Source: a virus. From it: a stretch of DNA of 39,184 nucleotides. The stretch lies in UHGV virus genome UHGV-0103155, one strand, 5' to 3'. The notes under the pieces were generated by a model. That model had not been told where the DNA came from, did not search any database, and saw only the letters and a program-made list of their open reading frames with translations. The position numbers were made by a program, and so were the translations under genes. Position 1 is the stretch's first letter; every line of letters begins with the position of its first letter. This document shows positions 5,166 to 38,975 of this stretch, piece by piece.

Positions 5166-5180
5166 TTACCTTTCGGGTAA
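5166..5180. promoter_or_regulatory. Palindromic operator-like site TTACCTTTCGGGTAA
   Basis: Perfect TTACC-N5-GGTAA upstream of LexA box and small antirepressor-type gene. Confidence 0.45.
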
Positions 5181-5217
5181 TTTGCAAAACGTGCTGGATA
5201 GCAAACAAATTATTTGC

Positions 5218-5237
5218 TACTGTATAAATATACAGTT
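5218..5237. promoter_or_regulatory. LexA box (TACTGTATAAATATACAGTT)
   Basis: CTGT-N8-ACAG with AT-rich spacer, near-consensus SOS box, about 20 bp upstream of the ATG at 5257. Confidence 0.7.
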
Positions 5238-5256
5238 ATTACATGGAGAAGATAAG

Positions 5257-5514
5257 ATGCAGCAGTATCACTATCCACTGGAAGACGGATTTACCGAAAG
5301 GATTCACACGCCGGGAGGCGTCAGGTCACTGGTGGAGGGATCGCACTTGATGAAATTACTCCGGGATCTCGATAAGGATGGATTTAATGTCGATGGCCCA
5401 CTTGCCGAACTGACTGCACTGATTAACTACGTCACCAGCTCACAGATGTCTATGCAGGATCTACAAACACATCTCGACTATTGTGCCGAACAATTACGAA
5501 AACAAACCAGATAA
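5257..5514 (+). CDS. Small antirepressor-type protein (C-terminal domain of the downstream antirepressor alone; Tum/Gifsy-antirepressor-like context)
   Basis: 85 aa from internal ATG; clearly similar to the C-terminus of the 5830-6540 product; LexA box immediately upstream. Confidence 0.55.
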   Translation: MQQYHYPLEDGFTERIHTPGGVRSLVEGSHLMKLLRDLDKDGFNVDGPLAELTALINYVTSSQMSMQDLQTHLDYCAEQLRKQTR

Positions 5515-5545
5515 GGTTTGCAATTACCAAGTGGAGTGCTTATAT

Positions 5546-5560
5546 TTACCTTTGAGGTAA
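5546..5560. promoter_or_regulatory. Palindromic operator-like site TTACCTTTGAGGTAA
   Basis: Perfect TTACC-N5-GGTAA, itself flanked by inverted repeat GGAGTGC/GCACTCC. Confidence 0.45.
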
Positions 5561-5651
5561 ATTTACAACGCACTCCTCTTATGCCATAGTAATCGGGCAC
5601 TGGCAAAATCCAGTGCCGGGATTGGCGTCCCGGGTTACTAAGTGGCGCATA

Positions 5652-5680
5652 CCACGCCAGACGTGGTTTTTTTATGCGTT
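5652..5680 (+). terminator. Rho-independent terminator
   Basis: Stem ACCACG/CGTGGT with 5-nt loop followed by T7-8 run, after the small antirepressor gene. Confidence 0.6.
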
Positions 5681-5829
5681 AAGCACAGCTATATCCGAAT
5701 TATGGTGGGCTGGGCAGGGGTCCGAAAGGACGCCGGTACCACTTAGGCCGGTACGCCAACCTTGTCCAGTTCACCACCAGTAATTGGCGTTGCGGTGGTG
5801 ATTAAAATCACTAAGTGGAGATAACCACC

Positions 5830-6540
5830 ATGGCTAATGCTCAAACTGCCATCTTCAAATTTGAATCTGTTAACCCTATCCGTTCCATCATTATCGATGG
5901 CCAACCATGGTTTGTAGCCCAAGACGTTTGTAGTGCGCTGCGTATCCAAAACGTCACCCAAGCACTTGAAAAACTGGATGATGATGAAAGGTCTATGTTC
6001 AACATAGGGCATGAACATCGTGCAATTTTTGACAGCCGAGTAAAAGAGATCAACATCATCTCCGAGTCAGGCCTCTACACACTGATCCTCCGCTGCCGCG
6101 ACGCAGTGACACCAGGCACTATCCCCTACCGCTTTCGTAAATGGGTTACAGGTGAGGTTCTTCCTCAGATCCGCCGCACCGGAAGTTACATTAAAAACTC
6201 GCTCCCGCAGGAAGAACGCATAAAGATGGTTGCCGACCAGGTAGCCAACGCCACGGCGTCAGCAGTAATGCAGGCGATGAAGATAGAGAACAAAACCTAC
6301 AGCGCCCCGCTGAAGCCCGGCTACCGCAGCCTGATTCACTCGCCGTCTGGTGTTCTCGGCCTGACGGAGAACTCACTGCTGATGAATCTGCTGAACCAGT
6401 TACAGGACGACGGGCACGACGTATCGGGCGCGGCGGCGGAGCTGACCACCATGTTCTGCTACATCGTCGGTGTGAGTAAATGCCTGCGTGATATCCAGAC
6501 CCACGCGGAATACATCAACGACAAAGCAGGGTTCTTCTGA
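5830..6540 (+). CDS. Antirepressor, Bro-N domain family with Ant-like C-terminal domain
   Basis: N-terminal region resembles Bro-N/phage antirepressor domains; C-terminal domain paralogous to 5257-5514; GGAG before ATG. Confidence 0.75.
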   Translation: MANAQTAIFKFESVNPIRSIIIDGQPWFVAQDVCSALRIQNVTQALEKLDDDERSMFNIGHEHRAIFDSRVKEINIISESGLYTLILRCRDAVTPGTIPYRFRKWVTGEVLPQIRRTGSYIKNSLPQEERIKMVADQVANATASAVMQAMKIENKTYSAPLKPGYRSLIHSPSGVLGLTENSLLMNLLNQLQDDGHDVSGAAAELTTMFCYIVGVSKCLRDIQTHAEYINDKAGFF

Positions 6541-6610
6541 CAGCGGCGGCACAGGGATGTGCCTTTAAATAATTCTGTACGATTGCAGACTGGGGGTGAA
6601 TAGCGTACTA

Positions 6611-6625
6611 TTACCTCAAGGGTAA
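6611..6625. promoter_or_regulatory. Palindromic operator-like site TTACCTCAAGGGTAA
   Basis: Perfect TTACC-N5-GGTAA about 60 bp upstream of the 6685 start. Confidence 0.45.
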
Positions 6626-6684
6626 GAAAGCATTTTTAATCTTCCCTTCAAAACGCGTCCTGTAGCCAAACATGGGAGGACGAA

Positions 6685-7317
6685 ATGAGAACAAATACAA
6701 CAAGAAAAGCGATGCCATACATTATCCCAGAAGCAGATTTCGATAGAAAACTGAACATGTCTGAGAAGAACACTAGTCACACCGAAAGCTACTTAGCGAA
6801 AGGTGTGGTTGATTTCGTTCTTCCGGGATTCACAACACCTTATGGTTATCGCCTTGTAAAATCTTGTAATGGCGATCATTACAGAATGATTACTACCAGC
6901 GATACTCCAGAAACGGTGTATGCGGTTAAGTTAATCTTTCGGGAAGATATCGTCGAAGCCAAAAGAACATGTACGCAGATCATGGTATGGCGTACGCCTA
7001 ATGTTATTCATGACCGTGCTGTTCATGGTTTGCCTCAGATTTTTTTTCAGTTCTTCCTAGAGCAATATGCGATCGTTGTATCTGATGAGCAACAAACAAT
7101 CGATGGGAGAAGATTCTGGGAAAGAATGATTTCTTGGGCTATAAACACCCCAGGATATAATGTATACGTTTCAGATGGCTCTGAAGAAGATAGACCTCTT
7201 AGCTTCATGACATCATGGGATGATTTCTATAGCCAGTGGGCTGATTTCTGTTGGGGCAGTGATAAAGATGTGCATACCCACAGACTACTGGTTATAAGCA
7301 AAGATAAACTGCATTAA
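6685..7317 (+). CDS. Hypothetical protein, AT-rich single-gene cargo (moron)
   Basis: 210-aa ORF with strong GGAGGA RBS, own upstream operator-like site and downstream terminator; Trp/Phe/Tyr-rich; no family recognised. Confidence 0.6.
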   Translation: MRTNTTRKAMPYIIPEADFDRKLNMSEKNTSHTESYLAKGVVDFVLPGFTTPYGYRLVKSCNGDHYRMITTSDTPETVYAVKLIFREDIVEAKRTCTQIMVWRTPNVIHDRAVHGLPQIFFQFFLEQYAIVVSDEQQTIDGRRFWERMISWAINTPGYNVYVSDGSEEDRPLSFMTSWDDFYSQWADFCWGSDKDVHTHRLLVISKDKLH

Positions 7318-7320
7318 TAG

Positions 7321-7345
7321 AAGCCCGCAGCGCGGGCTTTTTTGT
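7321..7345 (+). terminator. Rho-independent terminator
   Basis: Stem AGCCCGC/GCGGGCT then TTTTTTG. Confidence 0.6.
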
Positions 7346-7415
7346 GGACGAAACAAAAGTCAGTGCTACACTCATTGACGCCACATTGAGGTGGCTTATA
7401 GATGGAAATTTCACA

Positions 7416-7577
7416 ATGAAAAAAGCATTTGCTGCACTGTTCGTTTTGTTGTCTCTGGTAGCTTCAACTCAGGCCTTTGCCGGTCGTTGTCAGCACGACA
7501 GCGACACTGCTGCTGACGGCTCCCGCTGCGGTGGGCGTTCTGCGGATTCCCGCCCGGGTGGCGGTGGCATTCGTTAA
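7416..7577 (+). CDS. Small secreted peptide (53 aa, signal peptide plus about 31-aa Gly/Ser/Asp-rich mature part with 2 Cys)
   Basis: Internal ATG (MKKAFAALFVLLSLVASTQAFA…) with classical signal peptide; possible promoter TTGACG upstream; small-ORF call is tentative. Confidence 0.35.
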   Translation: MKKAFAALFVLLSLVASTQAFAGRCQHDSDTAADGSRCGGRSADSRPGGGGIR

Positions 7578-7579
7578 AA

Positions 7580-7598
7580 ACAAGGCCGCGAAAGCGGC
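7580..7598 (-). terminator. Hairpin GGCCGC-GAAA-GCGGCC with T-run on minus strand
   Basis: Perfect 6-bp GC stem; T-rich tract follows in minus-strand orientation, downstream of lipoprotein gene. Confidence 0.5.
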
Positions 7599-7600
7599 CT

Positions 7601-7612
7601 GTGACATGTCAC
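7601..7612. promoter_or_regulatory. 12-bp perfect palindrome GTGACATGTCAC (copy 1 of 3)
   Basis: Exact sequence also at about 25278 and 27542; sits where plus-strand cargo genes converge on the minus-strand lipoprotein gene end. Confidence 0.5.
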
Positions 7613-7989
7613 GCAACGCAATTATTACCGCGCCATGTAACATTTTTAATAATCTTATCAGCACCAAACTCAACGTAAACAGAGCAACTGAAATGGAGTG
7701 TATAACCGCCATCAGTTGTTGCGTATGTGTTTGAATATATAGTATTACCAATTAGATTAGACGTAGTATTATACGTTGTGGTTTGTGGTACGTTATAACT
7801 ACCAGAGCTTGAGTAAACATACACTCTGTTTCCATCTGGAGATGTAAGCTCTCCCTGAGGATACCCCCACTGCTGAACCATTGCGTCTATACTCTGCCCG
7901 CGCCACGTAAGCATATTTCTTTCAAACTGTGCAGCTGACTGGCATCCAACGAGAAGCATAAATCCAAAAATCAAAAATACTTTTCTCAT
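7609..7989 (-). CDS. Lipoprotein, function unknown (possible surface-modifying or superinfection-exclusion cargo)
   Basis: Signal peptide with lipobox LLVGC (MRKVFLIFGFMLLVGC…); Thr/Ser/Asn/Tyr-rich mature region; AT-rich gene. Confidence 0.6.
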   Translation of the reverse strand: MRKVFLIFGFMLLVGCQSAAQFERNMLTWRGQSIDAMVQQWGYPQGELTSPDGNRVYVYSSSGSYNVPQTTTYNTTSNLIGNTIYSNTYATTDGGYTLHFSCSVYVEFGADKIIKNVTWRGNNCVA

Positions 7990-8208
7990 AATTACCCCTA
8001 TCATGGAAAAACAGCACCAATCCACAAATTAACTAGTTATTTTATTATTCTTCCGAACAATACAATTCCGAATACTACAAAGCCGAACCATGCCGCTGCA
8101 CGCAACAGAGATTCCAATTGAAACCCATTTTTATCAAAATGTATGAATAGCATAAAAACGCTGCACATATTAGTACAATAAAAGTTATTTGAACCATCAT
8201 ATCTCCTT

Positions 8209-10683
8209 TTATTGCGGAGTGACATCCTGTGGTCGCCACCAGTATGTCTGGTTAAACTCTTTCTTCGAACGTTGCTCCATTTTACGTAAATAGCCTGGTG
8301 AAAAATACTCCTGCATCTGGTTAAAGATCATGTGATCGAGAGCCGCCTTCAAGTACCAGAGATTCGCACCAGGCATCAAACCTTTCCCCAGCTTCACCAG
8401 ATCACCACCAGTCTGCTCACTCTTCCCTTCCACAGCATTTAACGGTATGCCCTGAGCAATCTTCACTACGTCATCAACCAGACCAGCTACCGGGCCAAGC
8501 ATCGACGCCAGCGCGCCGCTTCCGTACCTAGTGTGATCTGACAATAAAAAGTCACCGTAAAGGCCAAGACCACCACCTTTCAGTAGAGCACCAAGCCAGA
8601 ATTTTGCGGCATCTTCTCCTGTCATCTCTCGAGGATTACGACCAGACGCAAGGTCGTTAAGTTGCTGCGACAAAGCGCCAAGAATGGTCGTACTGGCAAT
8701 AAACGTCGCAATATATGCCGCACGCCCACCAGCAGACGGCATACCCATAGCGCGTGACCAGTGACGCATAACAACCGAGATAGGGAACGATTTAAACAGG
8801 AAAACACTTCTCGTTAATTCACCTTTCCATGTTCCACGCTGAATACCAGAACCGGTTATCAGTTGCTCACGTGCTCCCGGTGTAATAACAGCCATATCAA
8901 CTTCTTCAGTTACGGCACCGAGCAGTTTACGCATTGCCTCAAATTTCACGCGTTCAGGCTCACCAAGATGTTTAACTGCTGAATCAGGGATACGCATAAT
9001 GCTTTCCGGTGTCAGCATCATATTATTACCGTTCCCCCAGTCCTCCTGTTTCGCCAGCTTCCATACGCTCCAGTCTGTGTCAGTAATCCCTTTGCTTTTC
9101 AGGATACGAAAATCAGAGTCATCGAGGCTACGAAGGTCTGGTGTCCGTGACACTACTTCTCCCAGGCTTCCCATCATGGTTACGCCATAGGCGCGCTTGT
9201 GCGCATCTGACCATGCTGTAAGCCCACTGGCACGCATTACCGCCGTTGCCGCCCAACGAGACACTGACGGCCCCATATTATCCATCGCCCAGCGGTTAAC
9301 GCTGCCAAGTAGAGATTCCATCGCCAGACCAGCGCGGCGCGCCCGCGCAAGTTCTGTACGGTTCGTTGGGTCCATAGCTTCAAGCTGGTTGCGGAATAAC
9401 TGGTTCATTGGAAGGTTGGTAACCTTCGCAGACAGATACATGGTTCCAAGATCAGAGAACGATGACAGCAACGCGGATCCGAGTCTGCTGGCAACCAGCC
9501 AGTTGCGGATATTGTCAGACCATCGCGCGATGTGCGGATTCGCTACAGGCTGTGTCTTTCCGGAAATAAAGTTGTACAGATTCTCTGTGTTGTTCGCCAG
9601 CCGCTCGACTTTACCGGTTTTACTCGGGTTAGCTGTTGCCGTTTCTGCCTTCACCTGATCAAGAAGAGAGCGGAAAACATGATCGGGGTTTGGGCCATAT
9701 GTTTCCACCAGTGCAATATCTTTACTGATACCTTCCAGGTGACCGACCATGATTTCCCATAGAGAGCGATCGCCATAAAGTTGCTGATATTGCAGATAGG
9801 AATCTGCATCTTTGAAATGTATCTGTCGTGATGCATTACCACGGTTAGCACGTGCGCCGGAAATTCGCATTCCGGTATCAGTAAGCTTATTCAGCCCACC
9901 AGTAGCGATCGTGTTATAAGCCTCTCCAAGAAATGAAGACAACTCGGCATCGTTCATCAGTTGTCCATCGGCTCGGATATAATATTTGCGATCCAGCTTA
10001 CCTATAACATCGCTAACCCACTTATCCTTTGATACTGCCCCAACCTTTTCCATAGAATGATGTTGAGGGATCCCCCAGTTTTCGAGATAGCCAATGTCCC
10101 CACCAGCATCATTAAACCGGCGGCGCAGCAGCTCTGTAACTTCTCTCCACGCCTTAGCACCGTTTCTTGCTTTAGCATTGCCAGTATTTTGCCCCCGCAT
10201 TTCATATACCAGGTCACGTACGCCCGCTTCATCTTCAAACAGACCAAAAAAGCGAGGATCAACTGCTTCGAATGCCTCCTGCAATTGACTCAATGCATAA
10301 TCACGGGTGGCTTTTGTTCTGGATTCAACAGAGAGGAAATTAGATTTACCGTCTGCATTAAAAGCTATAGTACGGTTAAGAGCGCCAAGTTTCCCATCAG
10401 CCCCTTGATAGCTATTGATAAATTTATCCAATCTCTGACGCGCGGCTATAGTGAGAGCCACACGACGTTTCTTTAATGCCGCTTCTCGCTGTAATTCTTC
10501 AGATGCCAATTGTGCTGCTCGATATAGCCGCTCTGATTCGGAAAGTTGTCGCCACGATATAGGGTCATCACGAGCAATGGAGCGCATATTTCGATAAATG
10601 CGGTCTTCAATGTTCTGTATTTCTCGCGCCGTTAACGTGCGCTGCGCCGCCTGCTGGACCGCTTGTATACATTCCTGTCTCAT
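8209..10683 (-). CDS. Large internal virion / DNA-ejection protein
   Basis: 824 aa, one of three consecutive large ORFs between tail-tube genes and tailspike, position equivalent to T7 gp15/gp16 core proteins. Confidence 0.55.
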   Translation of the reverse strand: MRQECIQAVQQAAQRTLTAREIQNIEDRIYRNMRSIARDDPISWRQLSESERLYRAAQLASEELQREAALKKRRVALTIAARQRLDKFINSYQGADGKLGALNRTIAFNADGKSNFLSVESRTKATRDYALSQLQEAFEAVDPRFFGLFEDEAGVRDLVYEMRGQNTGNAKARNGAKAWREVTELLRRRFNDAGGDIGYLENWGIPQHHSMEKVGAVSKDKWVSDVIGKLDRKYYIRADGQLMNDAELSSFLGEAYNTIATGGLNKLTDTGMRISGARANRGNASRQIHFKDADSYLQYQQLYGDRSLWEIMVGHLEGISKDIALVETYGPNPDHVFRSLLDQVKAETATANPSKTGKVERLANNTENLYNFISGKTQPVANPHIARWSDNIRNWLVASRLGSALLSSFSDLGTMYLSAKVTNLPMNQLFRNQLEAMDPTNRTELARARRAGLAMESLLGSVNRWAMDNMGPSVSRWAATAVMRASGLTAWSDAHKRAYGVTMMGSLGEVVSRTPDLRSLDDSDFRILKSKGITDTDWSVWKLAKQEDWGNGNNMMLTPESIMRIPDSAVKHLGEPERVKFEAMRKLLGAVTEEVDMAVITPGAREQLITGSGIQRGTWKGELTRSVFLFKSFPISVVMRHWSRAMGMPSAGGRAAYIATFIASTTILGALSQQLNDLASGRNPREMTGEDAAKFWLGALLKGGGLGLYGDFLLSDHTRYGSGALASMLGPVAGLVDDVVKIAQGIPLNAVEGKSEQTGGDLVKLGKGLMPGANLWYLKAALDHMIFNQMQEYFSPGYLRKMEQRSKKEFNQTYWWRPQDVTPQ

Positions 10684-10688
10684 TTAAT

Positions 10689-15001: not shown

Positions 15002-15013
15002 CTTATTATCCCC

Positions 15014-19812: not shown

Positions 19813-20250
19813 TTAACCAGTTACTTTTGAGCGGATCGGATACGGCGTATTGGCATCAACATCAAGGCTGATACCAGCAGAGAATTCGCCAGCCGTTAGT
19901 GGGCCAGTTGCGACGGAGTAGTTAACACGCAGATATCGCTGAACACCGGCAGGCACCTTTGCAGAAACAACTCGTTTACCTGCTGTCAGGGCGGTCTTTG
20001 CCAGTGCGCCACTATCATAAATAGTGGTCCATGAGCTGTTATTCTCACTCGTCTGCAACTGGATGTTTACAGTTGCATCACCGCTTGCCGCGGCGGCTGT
20101 GTTAACCAGCGCCCAAAACTCAAGCGGGTAACCCACGCCGATATCACGACGTTTTCCGTCAATTGGACCGAGATCGATTACGTCAGTAGAAGCCGCGGTA
20201 TTCGTAACCGCCTGAGCTTCGGAGAACATCAACAGTTTGTCGGTGATCAT
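19813..20250 (-). CDS. Hypothetical structural protein (possible capsid decoration/staple protein)
   Basis: 145 aa, Ala/Thr/Ser-rich, immediately downstream of major capsid gene. Confidence 0.4.
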   Translation of the reverse strand: MITDKLLMFSEAQAVTNTAASTDVIDLGPIDGKRRDIGVGYPLEFWALVNTAAAASGDATVNIQLQTSENNSSWTTIYDSGALAKTALTAGKRVVSAKVPAGVQRYLRVNYSVATGPLTAGEFSAGISLDVDANTPYPIRSKVTG

Positions 20251-24194: not shown

Positions 24195-24262
24195 ATCAAT
24201 GACTCCGTACGCAATTAAACTATTACCAATTTAACCACATATGATTTATTTATCGTAGATAG

Positions 24263-24299
24263 TTGACATTTAACGCACAAATTATTACCTTTCAGGTAA
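24263..24299 (+). promoter_or_regulatory. Promoter (-35 TTGACA) with overlapping operator-like site TTACCTTTCAGGTAA
   Basis: Consensus -35 hexamer followed about 17 bp later by AT-rich -10 region overlapping a perfect TTACC-N5-GGTAA palindrome. Confidence 0.45.
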
Positions 24300-24621: not shown

Positions 24622-24698
24622 GTGGCATTAGCTCAGTTGGACAGAGCAACCGCCTTCTAAGCGGTTGGTCGCAGGTTCGAATCCTGCATGCCACGCCA
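24622..24698 (+). tRNA. tRNA-Arg (anticodon UCU)
   Basis: Cloverleaf readable: acceptor GTGGCAT/ATGCCAC, D-loop AGCTCAGTTGG, anticodon loop CTTCTAA, T-loop GGTTCGAATCC, 3' GCCA. Confidence 0.9.
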
Positions 24699-26839: not shown

Positions 26840-27432
26840 TGATTACCATCCTGACGTTCTTTGAGTCGCTTCCTGGCTGCCGCTATGCGATCAGCAATTG
26901 TCACATTCACATTAACATCCAGGCGTTCTTTGAACGCGTTGACGTCGACGTGCTTACCAATCAGTTCGAGGTTCTTCACCTTGTCAGGCCATTTAATTTT
27001 TTTGAGGATTGTCTCTATCGAATCCTCGTTCATGTTCATGATGGTCGATGACAGATCAAAGCCACTAAGCGTAGTGCGCCAGATTTTCGGCCACTCGCGG
27101 ATTGGCTTAAGGCTCCCATCGTCGTTGAGGATGTCGATCACGTCCATCTGGTCGATCTCCACCAGGCGCATGAGAACGTAATCAGCACTGACGCGCATTC
27201 GTTTGTTGCGCTCCTCCATCAACTCGGCAATCCGTTTTTGAATGCGTTCATCGCGCATCATGACACTGGCTTTAACTGCCGCTGTATTTGGGGAGAATCC
27301 TGCGTTAATCGCTGCCTGAGTCTGGTTTTCAGGCGTTTTGATGTATGACTGGCAATAAGCCTCCTGCATTGCTGTTAGTGGCTTAAATTGCGTTGATTTG
27401 CGTTTATAGGTTTTAGGTTCAGCAGGCATCAT
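26836..27432 (-). CDS. Terminase small subunit
   Basis: About 200 aa from internal start (MMPAEPK…) with AAGGTGG RBS; immediately upstream of and coupled to large terminase. Confidence 0.6.
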   Translation of the reverse strand: MMPAEPKTYKRKSTQFKPLTAMQEAYCQSYIKTPENQTQAAINAGFSPNTAAVKASVMMRDERIQKRIAELMEERNKRMRVSADYVLMRLVEIDQMDVIDILNDDGSLKPIREWPKIWRTTLSGFDLSSTIMNMNEDSIETILKKIKWPDKVKNLELIGKHVDVNAFKERLDVNVNVTIADRIAAARKRLKERQDGNQ

Positions 27433-27449
27433 AACCACCTTGGTAATAG

Positions 27450-27464
27450 TTACCGTTGTGGTAA
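27450..27464. promoter_or_regulatory. Palindromic operator-like site TTACCGTTGTGGTAA in small-terminase leader
   Basis: Perfect TTACC-N5-GGTAA about 20 bp upstream of the small terminase start, with additional half-sites around. Confidence 0.4.
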
Positions 27465-28802: not shown

Positions 28803-28805
28803 GTG

Positions 28806-30130: not shown

Positions 30131-30191
30131 CTTTACCCTCGCTTATCCACATAACTTATTGATTACATTGATAACTAAAAAGATCGTCGAT

Positions 30192-30536: not shown

Positions 30537-30539
30537 AAT

Positions 30540-30616
30540 TTACCCCTGAGGTAATTAAAAACCACATAAGACACGAAATCAATAGAGTTTAGAATACTTT
30601 GTTACCCAGAAGGTAA
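30540..30616. promoter_or_regulatory. Two palindromic operator-like sites (TTACCCCTGAGGTAA and TTACCCAGAAGGTAA) about 60 bp apart
   Basis: Two perfect TTACC-N5-GGTAA copies in the gap between replication gene P and the DUF1064 gene. Confidence 0.45.
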
Positions 30617-30653
30617 CTATCAAGGCGTAAAAAAATGCGCTATCGCGCTGGTA

Positions 30654-31454: not shown

Positions 31455-32251
31455 GCTTCAGGGCTGTTCCAGTGCGGAACGTTGTTATCAGGTAATGTTG
31501 ATAGCTTCTGTCTGCTAATCTGCAGCCGCCTTGCCAGCTTCTGCTCCCACTGTGCCTGATGGTATGCCTTACCCTCAGCCATCCAGTAAATTCTGAACTC
31601 TGCAAGTTCCTGTGCCGTTGGCAGACTGTCCAGGTAGATCCCCTGCAATGAGCTTTTCCGAAGAAAGTCATCTGATGGTTGCCATTGTTCATGCATGACA
31701 AATTTGCCTAATTGCCCTGGCCCACCAGGATGAACAAAGTTATTCATCACGGCGTTGTTTGCGCCGGGGTCATGAGGCACAGAATCCCCGGTTTTTGTCC
31801 TGCTCTCCCTCTCTTGGTTAAATGACTGGTTATATGACTGGTTCTGGATCCCGTTTTTGGGATCATTCAACATCCCGTTTTTGGGATCATTCAACATCCC
31901 GTTTTTGGGTATATTCCCGTTTTCGGGAACATTACCGTTTTCGGGTTCATTACGTCCTTCTAGGTTGCCTTTAATGTTCCCTTTTTTGGTTATATTAAGA
32001 GAGAAAACCCGCACTCTTTTCGTCGCTCCCTTTCTCTCTCCGGTATCTGAAATAAGCCCCATTTTCATGAGCGATATAAGCCCGGCCTGCACGGTTTTTT
32101 TATTCAGGCAAGTGTCTTTAACGAGGCGTTCTATGCTGGGGTAGCAGAGGTTATATTCATCGGCTCTGTCAGCCATCGAGAGCAGTATGAGCTTTAATGA
32201 CGAGCTACCTGGATCTGTCTCCCAGGCCCAATCTGTTGCATGTCTGCTCAT
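31436..32251 (-). CDS. Replication initiation protein O-like (N-terminal HTH, internal Asn/Gly/Pro repeat region)
   Basis: 271 aa; N-terminal wHTH-like region; internal protein repeats NGNVPENGNIPKNGMLNDPKNG encoded by DNA iterons; precedes P. Confidence 0.6.
   Translation of the reverse strand: MSRHATDWAWETDPGSSSLKLILLSMADRADEYNLCYPSIERLVKDTCLNKKTVQAGLISLMKMGLISDTGERKGATKRVRVFSLNITKKGNIKGNLEGRNEPENGNVPENGNIPKNGMLNDPKNGMLNDPKNGIQNQSYNQSFNQERESRTKTGDSVPHDPGANNAVMNNFVHPGGPGQLGKFVMHEQWQPSDDFLRKSSLQGIYLDSLPTAQELAEFRIYWMAEGKAYHQAQWEQKLARRLQISRQKLSTLPDNNVPHWNSPEAWEDFL
31847..31995. repeat. Origin-like iteron array inside the O-like gene
   Basis: Tandem repeats ATCCCGTTTTTGGG (x3, about 24-bp period) then CCGTTTTCGGG (x2) and an AT-rich tract. 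Confidence 0.6.
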
Positions 32252-32266
32252 GATTAATCTCCGCTA

Positions 32267-32467: not shown

Positions 32468-32546
32468 GGTAAGCCCTGTTATTAGTATTGGGATTACGGT
32501 TATTTTGTGCTGACACAAAAAAAAGATCAACCAGATTTGGTTTTTT

Positions 32547-32561
32547 GTTACCTTTTAGGTA
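32547..32561. promoter_or_regulatory. Imperfect operator-like site TTACCTTTTAGGTAC
   Basis: One mismatch to TTACC-N5-GGTAA; between cro-like gene and next early gene. Confidence 0.3.
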
Positions 32562-32617
32562 CGAATAGATATGAAAAGACCGCCGGATGGCGGTCTACAG
32601 AGGGTTGTGGCTGGATA

Positions 32618-32848
32618 TCATGAGTAGAAGAAGTACGCCAGTTCTGCTTTTGAGCGCAGCCATCGTCTTGTTTTACAGGCTTTAAAAAGCCCATTCATCA
32701 ATACCTTACCTGGCATTTTGCGCTTACCTGTTAAGTGAGTCTGGATATAGTGACTCGTCGTTCCGGCTTCCTGTGCGAAGGCTTCACGCTCATCCGGAGT
32801 AAGTGCAAGCCAGTGTTTTTTGAAATCGAAATGTCCGTTATCGCTCAT
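32618..32848 (-). CDS. Cro-like regulator (YdaS-type HTH)
   Basis: 76 aa, divergent from repressor gene; sequence pattern of YdaS/Cro-like small HTH proteins. Confidence 0.55.
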   Translation of the reverse strand: MSDNGHFDFKKHWLALTPDEREAFAQEAGTTSHYIQTHLTGKRKMPGKVLMNGLFKACKTRRWLRSKAELAYFFYS

Positions 32849-32884
32849 AGCTATTGCCTGATATTTATTTCAGATAATAAATAT

Positions 32885-32947
32885 TCACCCATAAGGTAAC
32901 AAAAATCAAGGATAGTTACCCATGGGGTGCATTTACCTGTTGGGTAA
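32885..32947. promoter_or_regulatory. Immunity-region operator cluster: three TTACC-N5-GGTAA-type sites between divergent cro-like and repressor genes
   Basis: Sites near 32885-32899 (1 mismatch), 32916-32930 (2 mismatches), 32933-32947 (perfect); first lies between a TTGATT -35 and -10 of the leftward promoter. Confidence 0.55.
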
Positions 32948-33002
32948 TATTGCTTTAAATTGAATCATCTACTGATTCATATATGAGGCGATTTTCCAGA
33001 AA

Positions 33003-33587
33003 ATGAAAAGTATCCAGGACGTCCGCAGGCAAAATCTCAACGACTTGATCGACCGTGAATTCAATGGTGTTCAGACGCGGATGGCAGAAAAACTTGGAAC
33101 TCAGGCAAATCTGGTAAACCGCTGGGCTCTTGGCAAGAAGGTTATCGGCGACCAGGTTGCGCGAAAAATTGAAGCTGCCGCCAATAAACCCCGTAACTGG
33201 CTTGATATCGATCGCTCGCTTTCTCAGGAAGGTTTTCAGCCTGTCGGCCCAAGCGACATTGGTCAGCTGGCGGCTCACAACCTGGAACGCTGGATGAGCG
33301 AAAGCCGCGACCTTTCAACACAGGGAAAACTTCACCGCGCATCCGGCGTCGCCCAGGTGACAATCAGCCGCCTGTTAAACAATGAGGTCAGCGTTTCCAT
33401 TTCCACCCTGGAGAATGTTGCATCCGCATTCGGGCGTCACGGCTATGAATTACTGATTCACCCGCACGACCCTGCGACTATCAACTATGACCGCTCGCGC
33501 TACGCATTGTTACCCGAAACAGAGAAGGCAAAGATCGAAAGTTACATTGAATTTATCATCAGCCAGAACGAAAAAAACAAACAATAA
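33003..33587 (+). CDS. Prophage repressor with two HTH domains, no S24 peptidase domain
   Basis: 194 aa; two XRE-like HTH segments; no Ser/Lys autocleavage motifs; divergent from cro-like gene across operator cluster. Confidence 0.7.
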   Translation: MKSIQDVRRQNLNDLIDREFNGVQTRMAEKLGTQANLVNRWALGKKVIGDQVARKIEAAANKPRNWLDIDRSLSQEGFQPVGPSDIGQLAAHNLERWMSESRDLSTQGKLHRASGVAQVTISRLLNNEVSVSISTLENVASAFGRHGYELLIHPHDPATINYDRSRYALLPETEKAKIESYIEFIISQNEKNKQ

Positions 33588-33610
33588 AATCATATTTTTC
33601 AGTAAGTAAG

Positions 33611-33632
33611 CCGCCTCATGGCGGCTTTTTTA
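33611..33632 (+). terminator. Rho-independent terminator
   Basis: Stem GCCGCC/GGCGGC with 4-nt loop then T6. Confidence 0.6.
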
Positions 33633-33644
33633 TTGCCAGCAAGA

Positions 33645-33720
33645 TTACCTTATGGGTAATTTTTTTAACTCATATCTATTGACATCAAACCAGATACGCA
33701 TAATAATTACCTCAACGGTA
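33645..33720 (+). promoter_or_regulatory. Rightward promoter region (TTGACA -35) with two operator-like sites (TTACCTTATGGGTAA, TTACCTCAACGGTAA)
   Basis: Two perfect TTACC-N5-GGTAA palindromes bracketing a TTGACA hexamer upstream of the recombination operon. Confidence 0.45.
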
Positions 33721-33740
33721 ACAGACCGAGGTAACAAATT

Positions 33741-33893
33741 ATGCAGTGGAAAATCATCAACGGTTGGTACTGCGTTACTGCATGCGGATTCATGAGCTGG
33801 AAGTTCCGCACCTTACAGGAAGGCATTAAGTGGGCTTTCGTCAGCAAAGAAGCTCGCGATGTGGCCAACGATAACGAGATATGGGAGGGCTGA
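33741..33893 (+). CDS. Small ORF (50 aa), first gene of rightward operon
   Basis: ATG with GAGG SD; Trp/Cys-containing peptide; below ORF-track size cutoff, tentative. Confidence 0.3.
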   Translation: MQWKIINGWYCVTACGFMSWKFRTLQEGIKWAFVSKEARDVANDNEIWEG

Positions 33894-33895
33894 TA

Positions 33896-34195
33896 ATGAA
33901 CGTTAATCAGCAGAAAAATCTTCAAAAAATCATGCTGGCATTCGACAAGGACTACCGCCTGTCAGAACAGCTATATGACCGACAAGTTGAACTGATTGAG
34001 AGCATCCGACTTCATCAACTGTCCTCAACTTTCGACGTTGTAACAGGCAAAGGCGTTCGCCAAGAAGTACTGGAGGCTGCTAAAGACAGCCCTGAGTTCG
34101 AAGAACTGATGGATGCCTATCGGCGAGAGGCAATGGCAATTATCGCCCGCTGGGATCTGGCGGATAAGCTTGATGGACAGAGGGACGCGGCATGA
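33896..34195 (+). CDS. Hypothetical protein
   Basis: 99 aa from internal ATG with GGGAGGG RBS. Confidence 0.45.
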   Translation: MNVNQQKNLQKIMLAFDKDYRLSEQLYDRQVELIESIRLHQLSSTFDVVTGKGVRQEVLEAAKDSPEFEELMDAYRREAMAIIARWDLADKLDGQRDAA

Positions 34196-35091
34196 TGCGG
34201 AACGCTGGAATCATGGATAGAACAAAATACATCGGAGGAAGCGATGTTGCAGGGATTCTTGGAATTAGCCCATGGCGCACCCCGCTTGAGGTTTATCTGG
34301 ATAAGGTCCAGCCACGTGTCAAACCAGTAGACCAAAGCAAGCAGAAAGTTTTCACGCGTGGCCAGCGTATGGAGCCATACGTAATAGACCTGCTTTCTGA
34401 GGAAACAGGGATGGAAATCGTTCATCGCGGAAACCGCTATATCCACCGTGATTACGATTTTATTGCAGCTGAGATCGATGCAGAAGCAGCGTCAGGCGAG
34501 AACATTGAGATCAAAACAGTTAGTCCGTTCAAGGCCAAAGAATGGGGAGAAATCCAGACAGATGCAATTCCTGTGCATTACACGGCCCAGGCCATGCACG
34601 GGTTGATGGTTACAAACAAACAGGTATGCGTTTTCGGTGTGCTTATCGGTGGCGACGACTTCCGAATCTATCGGGTTGAGCGTGATGAAGAAACTATCCA
34701 GGCGATCTTAGAAAAAGAAATCGCTTTCTGGGACCGAGTGAAAAATCTTAACCCGCCGGAAGCTACCAGCGTAAGCGATGTATCGCTGATGTTTGAGAAA
34801 GATGCCGGGACAAGTATCGAGGCTGACGGAAAGGCACTCGCACTATTCAACGATCTACGAGACATGAAATCACGCAGAAAATCACTGGAAGAAGAAATAG
34901 CTATATCAGAAGAGAAGCTGAAGATGTACATGCAAGAGCACTCAGTCCTGACCCTGGACGGAAAGCCGCTCTGCACATGGAAATCTCAGATCAGCAACAG
35001 ATTCGACCAGAAGCTATTCCAGTCAGTACACCCTGAGTTATTCGAAAAATTCAAAACAACAACGACACAACGCGTCTTCAGAATGAAGTAA
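34192..35091 (+). CDS. YqaJ-like viral recombinase exonuclease
   Basis: 299 aa; sequence pattern of YqaJ/lambda-Exo-type PD-(D/E)XK nucleases; immediately upstream of RecT. Confidence 0.7.
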   Translation: MMRNAGIMDRTKYIGGSDVAGILGISPWRTPLEVYLDKVQPRVKPVDQSKQKVFTRGQRMEPYVIDLLSEETGMEIVHRGNRYIHRDYDFIAAEIDAEAASGENIEIKTVSPFKAKEWGEIQTDAIPVHYTAQAMHGLMVTNKQVCVFGVLIGGDDFRIYRVERDEETIQAILEKEIAFWDRVKNLNPPEATSVSDVSLMFEKDAGTSIEADGKALALFNDLRDMKSRRKSLEEEIAISEEKLKMYMQEHSVLTLDGKPLCTWKSQISNRFDQKLFQSVHPELFEKFKTTTTQRVFRMK

Positions 35092-35100
35092 GGAGAAAAA

Positions 35101-36123
35101 ATGTCTATCAATGCACTTAAGGCAGCGGCTACCGGTAACCAAGTTGCACATCATAATGAGAAACCAACAACTCTGGCCGGACTTCTGGCAGACCCAAAAA
35201 TTAAAGCTCAGATGGCTTTGGCACTTCCAAAGCACATGACAGCAGACCGTCTGGCGCGCATAGCAACCACAGAGATCAGAAAGGTTCCAAAACTTGCATC
35301 ATGCGACCAAGCCAGCTTCCTGGGGGCAATTATGCAATGTGCCCAATTGGGTCTTGAACCAGGCGGAGCTCTTGGACACGCTTACCTGATACCGTTCGAC
35401 AAACGCCAGAAAGTAAATGGAAGATGGGAAACCGTATCTACAGAAGCACAGCTGATTATCGGCTATCGCGGAATGATTGACCTTGCCCGCCGCTCTGGGC
35501 AGATCCTGAGTATCTCGGCTCGTACCGTACATACAAACGACAAATTCAGCTACTCATACGGCCTGGAAGAAACGCTCGAGCATTTACCTTGCGAAACAGG
35601 TGACCGCGGAGAATTAACGCACGTTTACGCCGTTGCACGACTGAAAGATGGCGGAGTCCAATTTGAAGTTATGAGCCGGGCAGACGTTGAGAAAGTTCGT
35701 GCACTGAGCAAAGCCGGTAGCAGTGGCCCATGGGTTGATCACTTCGATGAGATGGCTAAAAAAACAGTAATTCGCCGACTGTTCAAATATCTTCCTGTTT
35801 CTATTGAAATGCAGAAGGCTGTTGTTATGGATGAGCGCGCTGAAGCTGGACTTAGCCAAGATAACGCAGCTGTTATCACTGGTGAATATTCCGTAGTTGA
35901 CGATGAGCGTCAACACCTGTCGCCAATTTCAGATTCAGAACGAGAAGAAGCTCGAGAATATATCATCGCGATACTTAATAGCCTGGATCCATCTGCTGAA
36001 GATGCAAAAACGATGTTCAAGCGCGCTGAAAATGAAATTAACACCATGGCTGAAAAGCTCGGTGATGAATATCACCAAAAATTCATGATGACGCTTAACG
36101 ATATGCGTCCAGAATTCGAGTAA
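35101..36123 (+). CDS. recT: RecT-family single-strand annealing protein
   Basis: 340 aa with clear RecT-family character; paired with upstream exonuclease. Confidence 0.8.
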   Translation: MSINALKAAATGNQVAHHNEKPTTLAGLLADPKIKAQMALALPKHMTADRLARIATTEIRKVPKLASCDQASFLGAIMQCAQLGLEPGGALGHAYLIPFDKRQKVNGRWETVSTEAQLIIGYRGMIDLARRSGQILSISARTVHTNDKFSYSYGLEETLEHLPCETGDRGELTHVYAVARLKDGGVQFEVMSRADVEKVRALSKAGSSGPWVDHFDEMAKKTVIRRLFKYLPVSIEMQKAVVMDERAEAGLSQDNAAVITGEYSVVDDERQHLSPISDSEREEAREYIIAILNSLDPSAEDAKTMFKRAENEINTMAEKLGDEYHQKFMMTLNDMRPEFE

Positions 36124-36172
36124 CCACCACCGCGGCGCCACGTGCGCCGCACTGCAACCAAGAGAGGTATTC

Positions 36173-36421
36173 ATGAAAGGTGCATTAGGTAAGAAAGAAC
36201 TCCTGGCGGTGGTGCCACTGTCATGGAGCACTATCGACCGTATGGAGCGCGCAGGGGAATTTCCTAAACGCTGGTATATCACCGATAAACGCTGCGCATG
36301 GAACCGTGATGAAGTTGAGCGTTGGCTTGATGAACGTCAGGCAGCAAGCCCGGCAGAGTTCCAGGGTAAAAAGCCTCCTGTTCAGCAACGTGTATATCGT
36401 CCCGTGAGCAACGCTGCATGA
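36173..36421 (+). CDS. AlpA-family HTH regulator / putative excisionase
   Basis: 82 aa; AlpA/Xis-like pattern (…LSWSTIDRMERAGEFPKRWYI…). Confidence 0.6.
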   Translation: MKGALGKKELLAVVPLSWSTIDRMERAGEFPKRWYITDKRCAWNRDEVERWLDERQAASPAEFQGKKPPVQQRVYRPVSNAA

Positions 36422-36530
36422 GTGCGCTGCTAAGGCACTGGAGCAAATGGTCAGGATGGTACTTATTCCTGGCCTCTGTTTCAGCATGGCTTTATCTGCT
36501 GGCATTAATTTTCAGAGAGGGTTGGATTAA

Positions 36531-36830
36531 GTGAGAAAGTTAAGCCGACTTGAAAAATATCACATGAATAAGGTTTCAATGCGCAGTCCGTCAAAGATTG
36601 TCGCCGTTACTCCTGCGGCGATAGAGATCGAAAAACGCGCGATTGAAAGAGAGAAAAAAGGGCAATTCCGCATTGCCGCTCACCTTTGGCTTCAGTGTAT
36701 GGATGTTGCTTCTGGTGATGTTGAACGTGCAAGGATCGCGGTTCGCAGGGACCAATGTATCACAAAAGGTAACGGCCTTCGCCGTGGCGACTATAGCGGC
36801 ATAGGATGTTGTGGGGTGGTTTATGACTAA
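36531..36830 (+). CDS. PerC/Pch-family transcriptional regulator-like protein
   Basis: About 90-99 aa; segment …FRIAAHLWLQCMDVASGDVERARIAVRRDQC… matches the PerC-family signature pattern. Confidence 0.45.
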   Translation: MRKLSRLEKYHMNKVSMRSPSKIVAVTPAAIEIEKRAIEREKKGQFRIAAHLWLQCMDVASGDVERARIAVRRDQCITKGNGLRRGDYSGIGCCGVVYD

Positions 36831-37473
36831 GAAATACACACTAATCTATGCAGATCCACCCTGGGTATACCGGGACAAAGCCGCAGATGGTAATCGCGGT
36901 GCCGGTTTTAAATATCCGGTTATGAGTGTGCTGGATATCTGCCGCCTTCCTGTGTGGGATTTGGCCGATGAAAACTGTCTGTTGGCCATGTGGTGGGTGC
37001 CAACACAACCACTCGAAGCACTAAAAGTTGTTGAAGCCTGGGGATTCCGTCTGATGACGATGAAGGGCTTCACGTGGATAAAATGTGGTAGTCGACAACC
37101 AGATAAACTGGTTATGGGTATGGGACACATGACTCGCGCCAATAGTGAAGATTGCCTGTTTGCGGTAAAGGGAAAACTACCTACGCGCATTAATGCAGGG
37201 ATCGTTCAGTCATTTACCGCACCGCGGCTTGAGCATTCAAGAAAGCCAGATATCGTTCGTGAAAAACTTGTGCAATTATTAGGCGATGTTTCTCGCATTG
37301 AACTGTTCGCCCGCCAGACGTCTCATGGCTTCGATGTTTGGGGTAATCAGTGCGAAGACCCGGCAGTGCAACTACACCCTGGATACGCGTTGGATATTGG
37401 CGGATTAACAAATGCATTCAGCAATGCTCCGCTGTCACCAACAGACATCCAGGGGCGGGAGCGTGCTGCATGA
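36823..37473 (+). CDS. MT-A70 family DNA N6-adenine methyltransferase
   Basis: DPPW catalytic motif near N-terminus (…LIYADPPWVY…); about 216 aa. Confidence 0.75.
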   Translation: MTKKYTLIYADPPWVYRDKAADGNRGAGFKYPVMSVLDICRLPVWDLADENCLLAMWWVPTQPLEALKVVEAWGFRLMTMKGFTWIKCGSRQPDKLVMGMGHMTRANSEDCLFAVKGKLPTRINAGIVQSFTAPRLEHSRKPDIVREKLVQLLGDVSRIELFARQTSHGFDVWGNQCEDPAVQLHPGYALDIGGLTNAFSNAPLSPTDIQGRERAA

Positions 37474-37664
37474 ACAGGGCATCACCAGCAGATTTAAGAA
37501 AATGCCTTGAAACTGCAAACATGCTTGCACACAGCGGGATCAGGTTTGTTCCAATTCCCGCTGTCACTGATGCTGAATTTGCAACACTGTCAGCAATATT
37601 CGAAAACAAAATTGAATCACTGGCAGCAGAAGCAGAGATGGAAGAAAATCAGCAGAACTATTAA
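37470..37664 (+). CDS. Hypothetical protein, translationally coupled to methyltransferase
   Basis: ATGA overlap with methyltransferase stop; 64-aa ORF. Confidence 0.4.
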   Translation: MNRASPADLRKCLETANMLAHSGIRFVPIPAVTDAEFATLSAIFENKIESLAAEAEMEENQQNY

Positions 37665-37667
37665 ACG

Positions 37668-38918
37668 TTATTCCCCCGCCATCCACTTCTCAAACTTCGA
37701 CGGGGAGAACGGAATCAGATCCGTATGCTCCCCGTCAATCCATGAATCAATCATATCGGCCCACTGCTGCAACATGTAGGCGCGCTGTCTGGCGTATTCC
37801 GCTTTGTTATATACGGCGCGCACACCTTTCTGCTCATGTGCCAGAGCCTTTTCAATCCAGTCTGAAGGATAACCAGCCTCATGCAACAACGTACTGGCTG
37901 TACGGCGCATATCATGTACAGTGAAGTCCTGAATATGCTCACCATCTTCATTTATTATTTTCACCGTTCTGTCGATCAGAGAGTTCAGCGCGGCATTAGA
38001 TAATGGCTTCCGGAAATTGTAACGACCAGGAACCAGATATTCACTTCCACCAGCGCACATCTGCAACCCGATTAATATATCCTGTGCCTGTTTAGGCAGG
38101 TAAATAACGTGCGCCCGACTTCCCTTCATGCGGTCTGAAGGAATTGTCCATGTCCATTTTTTAAAATCTATTTCATCCCACGTTGCATTGGTGAATTCGC
38201 CTTTACGAACCATAGTGATAAGCACCAGCTTTAAAGCCATTTTCATAGTGCCCATAGCACCAATGGCATCCAGCGTGCGGAAGAACAGACCAATTTCTTC
38301 TGGTGTCAGTGTTCGCTCTCGTGGTTTAAATATGGCGATAGACGAAGGTTTAATGTCAGCCGCAGGATTAAACAAACCATGACCACGGTCATTGGCGTGA
38401 CGGTATACGCTGCTGATGATCTCCCTGGCCTGCACTGCTGTTGCCCGACCACCGCGTTCGACAATCCGGTCACACAAATCACGAACCATCGATGTGGTAA
38501 TTTCAGCCATTATTTTGTTGCCAAGAACCGGAAGTATGTCACGGTCGATCACCGCCTGCTTCATTGCGCGGGTACTGTCAGCCAGGATGACGTGTTTCAT
38601 ATAACTGTCGGTATGTACCGCAAACGTCTCGGCACCACGAATCTTTTTGATACCGTCACGTTTAGCCGCAGCCGGCGACTGGCCTGCTTTAAGCAGCTTC
38701 TTTGCAGCAATCAGTTCTTCTCGCGCTTCTGCCAGGCTGATACCGTCACGCCCATACTGCCCGATTACCAGTGTTTCGCGGCGACCGTTGATACGGTAGT
38801 CATAGCGAAACGAGACCGTGCCTGACGTAAGCACAGCTACATACAGCCCGTCACGATCGGAGACCTTGTACAGTTTGTCCTGCGGCTTGAGGTTTTTTAA
38901 TTTTGTATCGGTAAGCAC
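37668..38918 (-). CDS. int: Tyrosine integrase (P4-like family)
   Basis: 416 aa; N-terminal arm-binding-type segment and C-terminal catalytic region (…HDMRRT…, …LAHE…); adjacent to right att core. Confidence 0.85.
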   Translation of the reverse strand: MLTDTKLKNLKPQDKLYKVSDRDGLYVAVLTSGTVSFRYDYRINGRRETLVIGQYGRDGISLAEAREELIAAKKLLKAGQSPAAAKRDGIKKIRGAETFAVHTDSYMKHVILADSTRAMKQAVIDRDILPVLGNKIMAEITTSMVRDLCDRIVERGGRATAVQAREIISSVYRHANDRGHGLFNPAADIKPSSIAIFKPRERTLTPEEIGLFFRTLDAIGAMGTMKMALKLVLITMVRKGEFTNATWDEIDFKKWTWTIPSDRMKGSRAHVIYLPKQAQDILIGLQMCAGGSEYLVPGRYNFRKPLSNAALNSLIDRTVKIINEDGEHIQDFTVHDMRRTASTLLHEAGYPSDWIEKALAHEQKGVRAVYNKAEYARQRAYMLQQWADMIDSWIDGEHTDLIPFSPSKFEKWMAGE

Positions 38919-38960
38919 AATTCACCCGTATAGAAACCATTTTCATGACGGTATGAGAGT

Positions 38961-38975
38961 ATACCTTTAAGGTAA
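38961..38975. promoter_or_regulatory. Imperfect operator-like site ATACCTTTAAGGTAA upstream of integrase
   Basis: One mismatch to TTACC-N5-GGTAA, about 45 bp upstream of the int start. Confidence 0.3.

Follow-up and report, generated by a model that had tools for sequence, protein, structure and literature searches.

The closest known counterpart of the element studied here, a 15-bp palindrome (TTACC-N5-GGTAA) dispersed over a prophage in the 39,184-nucleotide virus genome UHGV-0103155 (the window, by which we mean the whole stretch analyzed), is found in Salmonella phage epsilon15. The GenBank record of epsilon15 (AY150271.2) lists seven features as "protein_bind, repressor, lysogeny," each of the form ATTACC-N5-GGTAAT, and they are located at the small terminase (12-27), the portal operon (2931-2947), and ant/tailspike (19895-19911), at the recombination-operon promoter (three sites), and after the replication genes (one site). 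These positions are syntenic to the window sites that start at 27450, 24285, 5166 (corresponding to the three coordinate pairs just given), 33645, 33707, and 30602, plus one more. The repressor note in the same record refers to PDB entry 5D50, the repressor (Rep) of phage SPC32H. The operator set that we describe is a rediscovery, as the same sites are already curated in epsilon15 and the repressor-antirepressor pair has been solved structurally. The window prophage and epsilon15 (repressor gp38) share the genus, the palindrome, the dispersed syntenic positions, and the spacings. However, the two Rep proteins are only 42% identical overall, epsilon15 is without the cargo-unit operators 5546 and 6611 of the E. 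coli clade, and it has an operator at the lysis cassette that has been lost in the window. Additionally, the epsilon15 record leaves unmarked the three sites between rep and cro and the promoter-proximal site after the replication genes, all of which were found by the present scan.

Salmonella phage SPC32H resembles the window prophage in its homologous Rep, its small antirepressor Ant (88% identical), the LexA box on the ant promoter, and the lack of an autocleavage domain, and it carries the same motif at the same places. According to PMC9638917, SPC32H Rep occupies palindromic sites as a tetramer, with N-terminal domains that pair across dimers, and is released by a tetrameric Ant. The C-terminal part of the protein is a p53-like tetramerization domain that has been linked to DNA looping, and the repression mechanism was described as not extensively characterized (PMC9986798). 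The SPC32H structures (5D50 and 5D4Z) are without DNA, and the window differs from SPC32H in having a second, putatively Rep-gated antirepressor of the Bro-N/Ant-like type behind IsrK-like and C4 RNAs.

More distant systems share individual features with the window. The P1 repressor C1 has 22 operators across the phage genome (PMC8546580). As in P1, one repressor would serve many separate operons through dispersed operators and be inactivated by a protein antagonist, and the C4 antisense RNA upstream of an antirepressor gene, known from P1 immI (c4-icd-ant), is found in the window as well. However, the P1 operators are asymmetric 17-mers (ATTGCTCTAATAAATTT), whereas the window sites are symmetric 15- to 17-mers of different sequence, and C1 is monomeric, in contrast to the tetrameric Rep. 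In phage lambda, too, the repressor and cro genes diverge around a set of three operators, early promoters are covered by operators, and binding may be cooperative across integral helical turns, but lambda has two operator regions and expresses its late genes by antitermination, whereas the window has 11 operator loci; moreover, lambda CI carries an S24 self-cleavage domain and Rep does not. The stoperators of the mycobacteriophage L5 repressor gp71 are also numerous sites scattered in short intergenic gaps, and they are asymmetric and orientation dependent and block elongation inside operons. In contrast, the window sites are symmetric and mostly lie on promoters.

Text searches of the literature returned no paper describing these operators, and they are unlisted in the phiV10 GenBank record and in the 2022 ZX5 regulatory paper. 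The sequence features of a Uetakevirus Rep operator regulon were found in the window, namely, Rep homology over three domains, the (A)TTACC-N5-GGTAA(T) palindrome, syntenic, dispersed sites with conserved spacing, and a small antirepressor gene behind a LexA box in place of a self-cleavage domain in Rep. A sequence-only reading of the window had proposed that about 15 copies of the palindrome at regulatory positions allow one repressor to silence many separate promoters. The evidence presented below, which comprises the epsilon15 annotation, synteny, spacing, invariant half-sites, promoter geometry, and domain covariation, bears this proposal out and makes it very probable that the palindromes are the operators of the lysogeny repressor Rep.

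The window was assigned by megablast to the genus Uetakevirus (epsilon15/phiV10-like podophages), with 97 to 98% identity in the early half to Escherichia phages phiv142-3, PAS61, ZX5, TL-2011b, and phiV10. The attachment core ATTGAGTGGGAATGATT forms direct repeats at 151-167 and 39109-39125 that bound the prophage, and the host DNA at the window ends is the 3' end of guaA, the location at which ZX5 has the same core (PMC9782041). Since the core is present at both ends, the window holds one complete prophage of approximately 39 kb.

Motif frequency and placement

Ten perfect copies of TTACC-N5-GGTAA were found in the window, compared with 0.00 in 100 dinucleotide-preserving shuffles. When up to one mismatch was allowed, 15 matches were obtained versus 0.72 expected, and with up to two mismatches there were 38 versus 11.1 expected. 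When every 5+5 palindrome with a spacer of 0 to 12 was counted without bias, this motif ranked first with its 10 copies, while the runner-up had 4. A weight matrix built from the genus, for which the extended operator consensus is wATTACC-wwWww-GGTAATw, scored 13 window sites above 12 bits, compared with 0.2 in shuffles. Together with four conserved one-mismatch sites and one conserved two-mismatch site, the perfect copies make up a set of 15 sites at 11 loci (Table 1). All 15 are outside the gene map, although noncoding DNA accounts for only 7.9% of the prophage, and for the 10 perfect sites alone the probability of such a placement is approximately 1e-11. The control phages lambda and Sodalis phage phiSG1 have no perfect copies; phiSG1 was taken as a Rep-less outgroup and, being a degraded mosaic, serves as a frequency control only. 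One further one-mismatch match, at 1937-1951, is probably due to chance, as it falls inside a coding sequence, that of the first lysis gene, and neither phiV10 nor epsilon15 has a counterpart. The number and coordinates of the sites match the list of the sequence-only reading, which had also described the palindrome as too frequent for chance and confined to intergenic or leader DNA.

TABLE 1 Operators, repressor, Cro-like protein, and antirepressor features in the window
Feature	Coordinates	Strand	Match to TTACC-N5-GGTAA	Remarks
Operator between tailspike (start 5061, minus) and ant (start 5257, plus)	5166..5180		Perfect	Off both predicted core promoters
LexA box (CTGTATAAATATACAG)	5220..5235			Perfect LexA box; in ant promoter spacer (TTGCTA-17-TATTAC, 5214-5242); conserved in 7/7 genomes
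Small antirepressor Ant	5257..5514	+		88% identical to SPC32H Ant
Operator upstream of IsrK-like RNA/C4 RNA/Bro-N antirepressor unit	5546..5560		Perfect
Operator ahead of cargo gene 6685-7317	6611..6625		Perfect	-10 of TTGCAG-17-TACTAT (6583-6611) ends on its first T
Operator between portal operon (minus) and tRNA-Arg and gp49/66-family gene (plus)	24285..24299		Perfect
Second small-terminase operator, weak	27432..27446		1 mismatch	Overlaps Shine-Dalgarno sequence; 18-bp spacing in 6 genomes
Small-terminase operator	27450..27464		Perfect	Its first T closes the extended -10 TGgTACTAT (27472-27464, minus strand)
Proximal operator, DUF1064 gene (ATG 30536)	30540..30554		Perfect	Abuts -10; contains Shine-Dalgarno sequence
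Distal operator between P-like replication gene and DUF1064 gene	30602..30616		Perfect	62 bp from proximal site in all genomes
Weak operator (TTACCTTTTAGGTAC)	32548..32562		1 mismatch	Directly past cro terminator, ahead of next early-right gene
Cro-like small helix-turn-helix protein, divergent from rep	32618..32848	-		phrog_35 "transcriptional repressor," E 1e-12
Operator, cro-proximal (TCACCCATAAGGTAA)	32885..32899		1 mismatch	Identical mismatch in 80/80 prophages
Operator, middle of rep-cro cluster (TTACCCATGGGGTGC)	32916..32930		2 mismatches	Perfect in Salmonella and Klebsiella relatives
Operator, rep-proximal (TTACCTGTTGGGTAA)	32933..32947		Perfect	Half-sites invariant in 80/80 IMG/VR prophages
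Repressor Rep	33003..33587	+		N-terminal helix-turn-helix DNA-binding, middle dimerization, and C-terminal tetramerization/Ant-binding domains
Distal operator, leftward-type early (recombination) operon promoter	33645..33659		Perfect	19 bp upstream of -35
Recombination-operon promoter TTGACA-17-AATAAT	33679..33707	+		11/12 match in promoter scan
Proximal operator, recombination operon	33707..33721		Perfect	First T is last T of -10 hexamer; covers start-site region
Weak operator-like site ATACC...GGTAA	38961..38975		1 mismatch	Ends 43 bp upstream of int start codon, inside att arm

Conservation of sites and spacings

We compared seven genomes (the window, phiv142-3, phiV10, Tyrion, BUCT711, epsilon15, and SPC32H). 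TTACC-N5-GGTAA was the top 5+5 palindrome in every one of them, with 8 to 11 perfect copies each at syntenic loci. A center-to-center spacing of 62 bp is conserved both at the recombination-operon promoter (33645 to 33707; 63 bp in BUCT711) and at the promoter after the replication genes. The rep-cro region has conserved spacings of 17 and then 30 to 31 bp (in the window, 32933 is 17 bp and 32885 is 31 bp away from operator 32916, and this arrangement occurs in every genome compared), and the two sites ahead of the small terminase are 18 bp apart. Syntenic copies of 32548 and of 5546 were identified in phiV10, Tyrion, and BUCT711, and the int-proximal site 38961 has the same single mismatch at the same place in all seven genomes. 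Rep itself is up to 99% identical within the genus and 41 to 46% identical between clades, but the recognition-helix stretch NLVNRW in its N-terminal domain is invariant across the genus.

A finer footprint was obtained from 78 to 80 near-identical E. coli prophages from IMG/VR that encode an identical Rep N-terminal domain; the 80 loci came from a viral-contig scan with a DNA-binding-domain alignment and were all identical in that domain, so they represent no wider diversity. In these prophages the half-sites are essentially unaltered, whereas the spacers of the distal operators occur in 13 to 21 different forms. Nucleotide diversity (pi) was 0 to 0.015 in the half-sites, 0.28 to 0.40 in the distal spacer and upstream flank, and 0.01 to 0.12 at neighboring third codon positions. 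The weak operator 32548 was present at an equal offset in 52 of the 80 prophages, 50 of which had the same GGTAC mismatch. Across the 7 genomes and 80 prophages, all half-site departures were one-sided (TCACC/GGTAA, GGTAC, GGTGA, TTCCC, AGTAA, and GATAA), and no compensatory half-site changes were found. Three kinds of multiallelic patch (pi of 0.28 to 0.40) were observed across 78 of the prophages, at the distal-operator spacers, the 7 to 8 nucleotides upstream of them, and the rep-terminator loop (33616-33619, 33637-33644, 33650-33654, and 30607-30611 plus flank). We rejected spacer hypervariability as a general property, as it is clear in the E. coli clade, weak in the Salmonella-type phages, and confounded by mosaicism in the 64 to 65% clade.

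Position of the operators relative to promoters

The promoters named throughout are consensus predictions. Six loci have an operator that touches or overlaps the -10 element or the promoter spacer, and the promoter elements are conserved in the seven genomes. At 33707, 30554 (minus), 5546, 27464 (minus), and 6611, the first T of the operator is also the final base of the predicted -10. Because the operators occupy the -10 or the spacer, steric blocking of RNA polymerase would be the simplest mechanism. At the recombination operon, the CTATTGAC block and the -10 are kept in the seven genomes. The DUF1064 unit repeats the layout of this operon, with operator 30602-30616, 19 bp, TTGATT, 17 bp, TTTAAT (promoter 30582-30554, minus strand), and a second operator. 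In the rep-cro region, both the spacer and the -10 region of the predicted minus-strand cro promoter lie within operator 32885; the -35 of this promoter is TTGATT at 32909-32904 or TTGTTA at 32902-32897. The small-terminase promoter is preceded by an intrinsic terminator (27501-27484). Operator 5546 is flanked by two promoters: the -10 of TTGCAA-17-TATATT (5518-5546) ends on its first T, and the -35 of TTTACA-17-CATAGT (5562-5590) begins 2 nucleotides past it. The latter promoter predicts a start at approximately 5597, which is the 5' end of the IsrK-like RNA. In the divergent region of operator 24285, the plus strand carries tRNA-Arg (24622-24698) and a conserved TTGACA (24263-24268) located 16 nucleotides upstream of the operator, so that the -10 position falls in the left half-site.

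The half-site follows the DNA-binding domain into unrelated phages

The Pseudomonas phage PseuP_224 is an unrelated lambda-like siphovirus whose cI consists of a Rep-like N-terminal domain (39% identity) fused to an S24 peptidase domain. All 12 Pseudomonas contigs with the Rep-like N-terminal domain carried TTACC-N4-GGTAA at -73 and -34 from the cI start, and a further copy at approximately +830 bp was found in 11 of the 12, while the twelfth locus stops before that position. Genes that share the C-terminal domain and differ in the N-terminal one had TTAGC-N4-GCTAA or TTATC-N5-GATAA at those positions, and there were no TTACC sites in the contigs with a swapped N-terminal domain. At least three N-terminal domains were found on one S24 C-terminal domain among the cI genes of Pseudomonas lambdoid phages. 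The Pseudomonas cI loci are a clean example of modular immunity swapping, in which the TTACC half-site tracks the Rep-like DNA-binding domain and is replaced when the domain is swapped.

Repressor, Cro-like protein, and antirepressors

Residues 1 to 190 of Rep aligned to the SPC32H repressor (5D50_A; phmmer against PDB, E 5.6e-42), and the protein is 99% identical to the phiV10 and ZX5 repressors. A Pfam search of Rep found helix-turn-helix families only and no S24 self-cleavage peptidase domain. The sequence-only reading took Rep for a repressor with tandem DNA-binding helix-turn-helix motifs, but this part of it did not survive: the Pfam HTH_3 match at residues 106 to 147 falls in the dimerization domain, and by homology to SPC32H Rep the N-terminal domain alone is predicted to bind DNA. 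Overexpression of the ZX5 repressor gave no free phage, and the mRNAs for holin and endolysin fell by more than 99.9% (PMC9782041).

The Cro-like protein encoded divergently from rep has 58 to 83% identity within the genus, where its AGTTSHYIQ.HLT stretch does not vary, and it probably shares the Rep operators as a second reader. The prophage also encodes an AlpA-like regulator, a PerC-like activator (36531-36830), and an MT-A70 methylase. Within the DnaT-like primosomal gene, two identical tandem 24-bp units (TGGGATCATTCAACATCCCGTTTT...) at 31858-31901 (plus strand) were first flagged as terminator-like hairpins and could be replication-origin iterons.

The perfect LexA box in the ant promoter predicts that induction runs through the small LexA-controlled antirepressor and not through self-cleavage of Rep. 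A second LexA-like box (5147-5162) was dropped because it is not conserved in relatives. The second antirepressor gene (5815-6540, plus strand) encodes a Bro-N domain and a C-terminal region that is 42% identical to the small Ant (both belong to PHROG 450). Two RNAs matched Rfam families between the small ant gene and the Bro-N gene: an IsrK-like small RNA at 5597-5673 (plus strand, 67.7 bits) and, upstream of the Bro-N gene, a C4 antisense RNA at 5698-5781 (plus strand, 66 bits, with a gathering score of 45). Since both RNAs are located there, the 56-amino-acid open reading frame (ORF) at 5613-5783 is probably noncoding. The second antirepressor, which is predicted to be Rep repressed behind operator 5546, would provide positive feedback once induction begins.

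Proposed mechanism of repression

Under the explanation that we favor, Rep would act as a non-self-cleaving tetramer of the SPC32H/epsilon15 type in which one N-terminal helix-turn-helix domain reads each TTACC half-site. In the lysogen, Rep would directly shut nearly every transcription unit through its own operator, including cro/replication, recombination, the "nin-like" DUF1064 unit, terminase, tRNA/gp66, the second antirepressor, and the cargo gene, and its putative sites also adjoin the portal, tailspike, and int genes. Bound Rep would block RNA polymerase at the promoters of the early and terminase units. The 62-bp pairs (six helical turns) and the sites at 17 and 31 bp (31 bp being three turns) suggest, through the 31- and 62-bp spacings, cooperative binding of site pairs by one tetramer or by neighboring tetramers. 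The conserved weak sites probably set the order of derepression and the autoregulation of the system. Upon induction, the LexA-controlled Ant would pull Rep off the DNA, and in lytic growth the Cro-like protein probably uses the same sites. Physical binding by Rep, cooperativity or looping, and the hierarchy among sites are steps that we infer from the sequence comparisons.

Several observations weigh against this explanation or narrow it. The operators at tailspike/ant, portal, and int overlap no convincing sigma-70 core promoter, so simple promoter occlusion is not evident there; in the late direction, 5166 and 24285 are located approximately 55 to 90 bp upstream of the likely start regions of the genes. 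It is not strictly true that every unit has an operator, as there is none ahead of the lysis cassette of the window: the relatives have one approximately 120 bp upstream of the cassette, but the corresponding region of the window (2085-2304) is without one, and the window is also without O-antigen modification genes at this region. At the position syntenic to the int site, the epsilon15 record has no repressor site but lists sites for integrase (26873-26882) and RNase III (26874-26912). Finally, the Cro-like protein is as conserved as Rep, so the comparative data cannot tell which of the two reads a site.

The late operons have an additional feature. A second motif, CATATGTGGTT-N5-GGTAATA, was found at 5114-5136 and 24221-24243 (minus strand; 2 found versus 0.01 expected), starting 30 to 42 bp past the tailspike and portal operators, and every one of the seven genomes retains it. 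Four relatives have a variant ahead of the lysis genes (epsilon15 24751 and phiV10 24739). This motif is a candidate activator site or part of a late promoter that depends on a further factor. A common phasing of the late operons was considered and rejected, as the distances from operator to second motif (62, 50, and 53 bp) are inconsistent. Because the portal and tailspike operators are off the core promoters and are followed by the second motif, an extra late-gene regulator is possible. The proposal that direct repression takes the place of an antitermination cascade finds partial support. In its favor, no N- or Q-like antiterminator gene was detected in 20 ORFs searched with Pfam and 10 searched with PHROGs, a search that novel antiterminators would escape, but the portal and tailspike operons may depend on such an extra regulator.

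Alternative explanations

The sequence-only reading also offered an alternative, in which the palindromes act as RNA hairpins (5-bp stem and 5-nucleotide loop) in 5' leaders and control translation or stability. Sites 30540 and 27432 are indeed next to or over ribosome-binding sites, and the 21-mers fold at -1 to -7.6 kcal/mol, but this explanation is very unlikely to be correct. It is the half-site sequence itself that is invariant and not mere complementarity, as all departures are one-sided and break the pairing. Five sites (33707, 30554, 5546, 27464, and 6611) begin at the end of the -10, so the transcript would be without the 5' arm, and the distal sites 33645 and 30602 are upstream of the -35 altogether. 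Additionally, single sites serve divergent genes (5166 and 24285), no Rfam family matches any site, and in unrelated phages the half-site accompanies the DNA-binding domain of a protein although the spacer there is N4. The repeats might also have arisen by chance or be generic extragenic palindromes or restriction or methylation motifs. This explanation has in its favor the palindromic form and the encoded MT-A70 methylase, and we regard its probability as negligible given the 10 copies seen versus 0 expected, their confinement to the noncoding fraction, their absence from lambda and phiSG1, and their synteny in seven genomes. Motifs of host transcription factors were rejected because they were a poor fit to the location and statistics.

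The two remaining alternatives accept that a protein binds the sites. The sites might be read mainly by another phage protein, either the Cro-like protein or the AlpA- or PerC-like regulators. The Cro-like helix-turn-helix is invariant across the genus and covaries with the motif as well as Rep does, and, by our reading of the sequences, a Cro-like "GTT" helix-turn-helix gene is also located beside the Pseudomonas TTACC-N4-GGTAA operators. However, the domain swap tracks the N-terminal domain of the repressor itself, the epsilon15 curators assign the sites to the repressor, and SPC32H Rep binds palindromic sites as a tetramer (PMC9638917). As Cro and the repressor share operators in classical switches, a Cro-like reader would be more a complement than a rival, and a role as the main reader is improbable. 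A somewhat larger, but still small, probability applies to the late, ant, and int sites being looping anchors or roadblocks (P1/L5-like) or, at int, a recombination or RNA-processing element. This would account for the missing core promoter over 5166, 24285 (late direction), and 38961, and it is consistent with the integrase and RNase III annotation of the epsilon15 int site and with the p53-like tetramerization domain of Rep, which has been linked to looping (PMC9986798). A pseudosite with a perfect TTACC half (24223-24237) is also located exactly 62 bp from 24285, but the matching distance is 50 bp at tailspike and 53 bp at the lysis locus of the relatives, which leaves no common phasing. 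Moreover, the sites are palindromic and without orientation bias, unlike stoperators, and 24285 does overlap a promoter, at the -10 position set by the conserved TTGACA of the divergent unit.

Implications

These results mainly confirm that a genuine operator set, already curated, can be recovered by reading raw sequence without tools, and the current understanding of the system is unchanged by it. The additions made here are a complete map of the operators in the phiV10-like E. coli clade, the rule of promoter overlap, the conserved 62-bp pairing, and the evidence from the Pseudomonas domain swap. The map suggests simple design rules, in which operator and -10 share one base, the last of the -10 and the first of the operator, pairs are placed 62 bp apart, and weak sites are found at cro, at int, and at the ribosome-binding site of terminase. 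Such rules may be useful for engineering phiV10-type reporter phages or for studies of Rep-Ant switching.

The sampled Uetakeviruses of E. coli, Salmonella, Klebsiella, and Enterobacter have the same recognition helix and the same half-site despite a Rep identity as low as 41%, whereas specificity is exchanged freely among the Pseudomonas phages, which have only three operators. We tentatively suggest, as a possibility with the odds against it, that the operator code of the genus is frozen, since one tetrameric repressor would gate essentially all units through approximately 15 operators. All members of the genus would then belong to one immunity group, and the timing of lytic expression would be set by operator strength and 62-bp pairing and not by a cascade of antitermination or activators.

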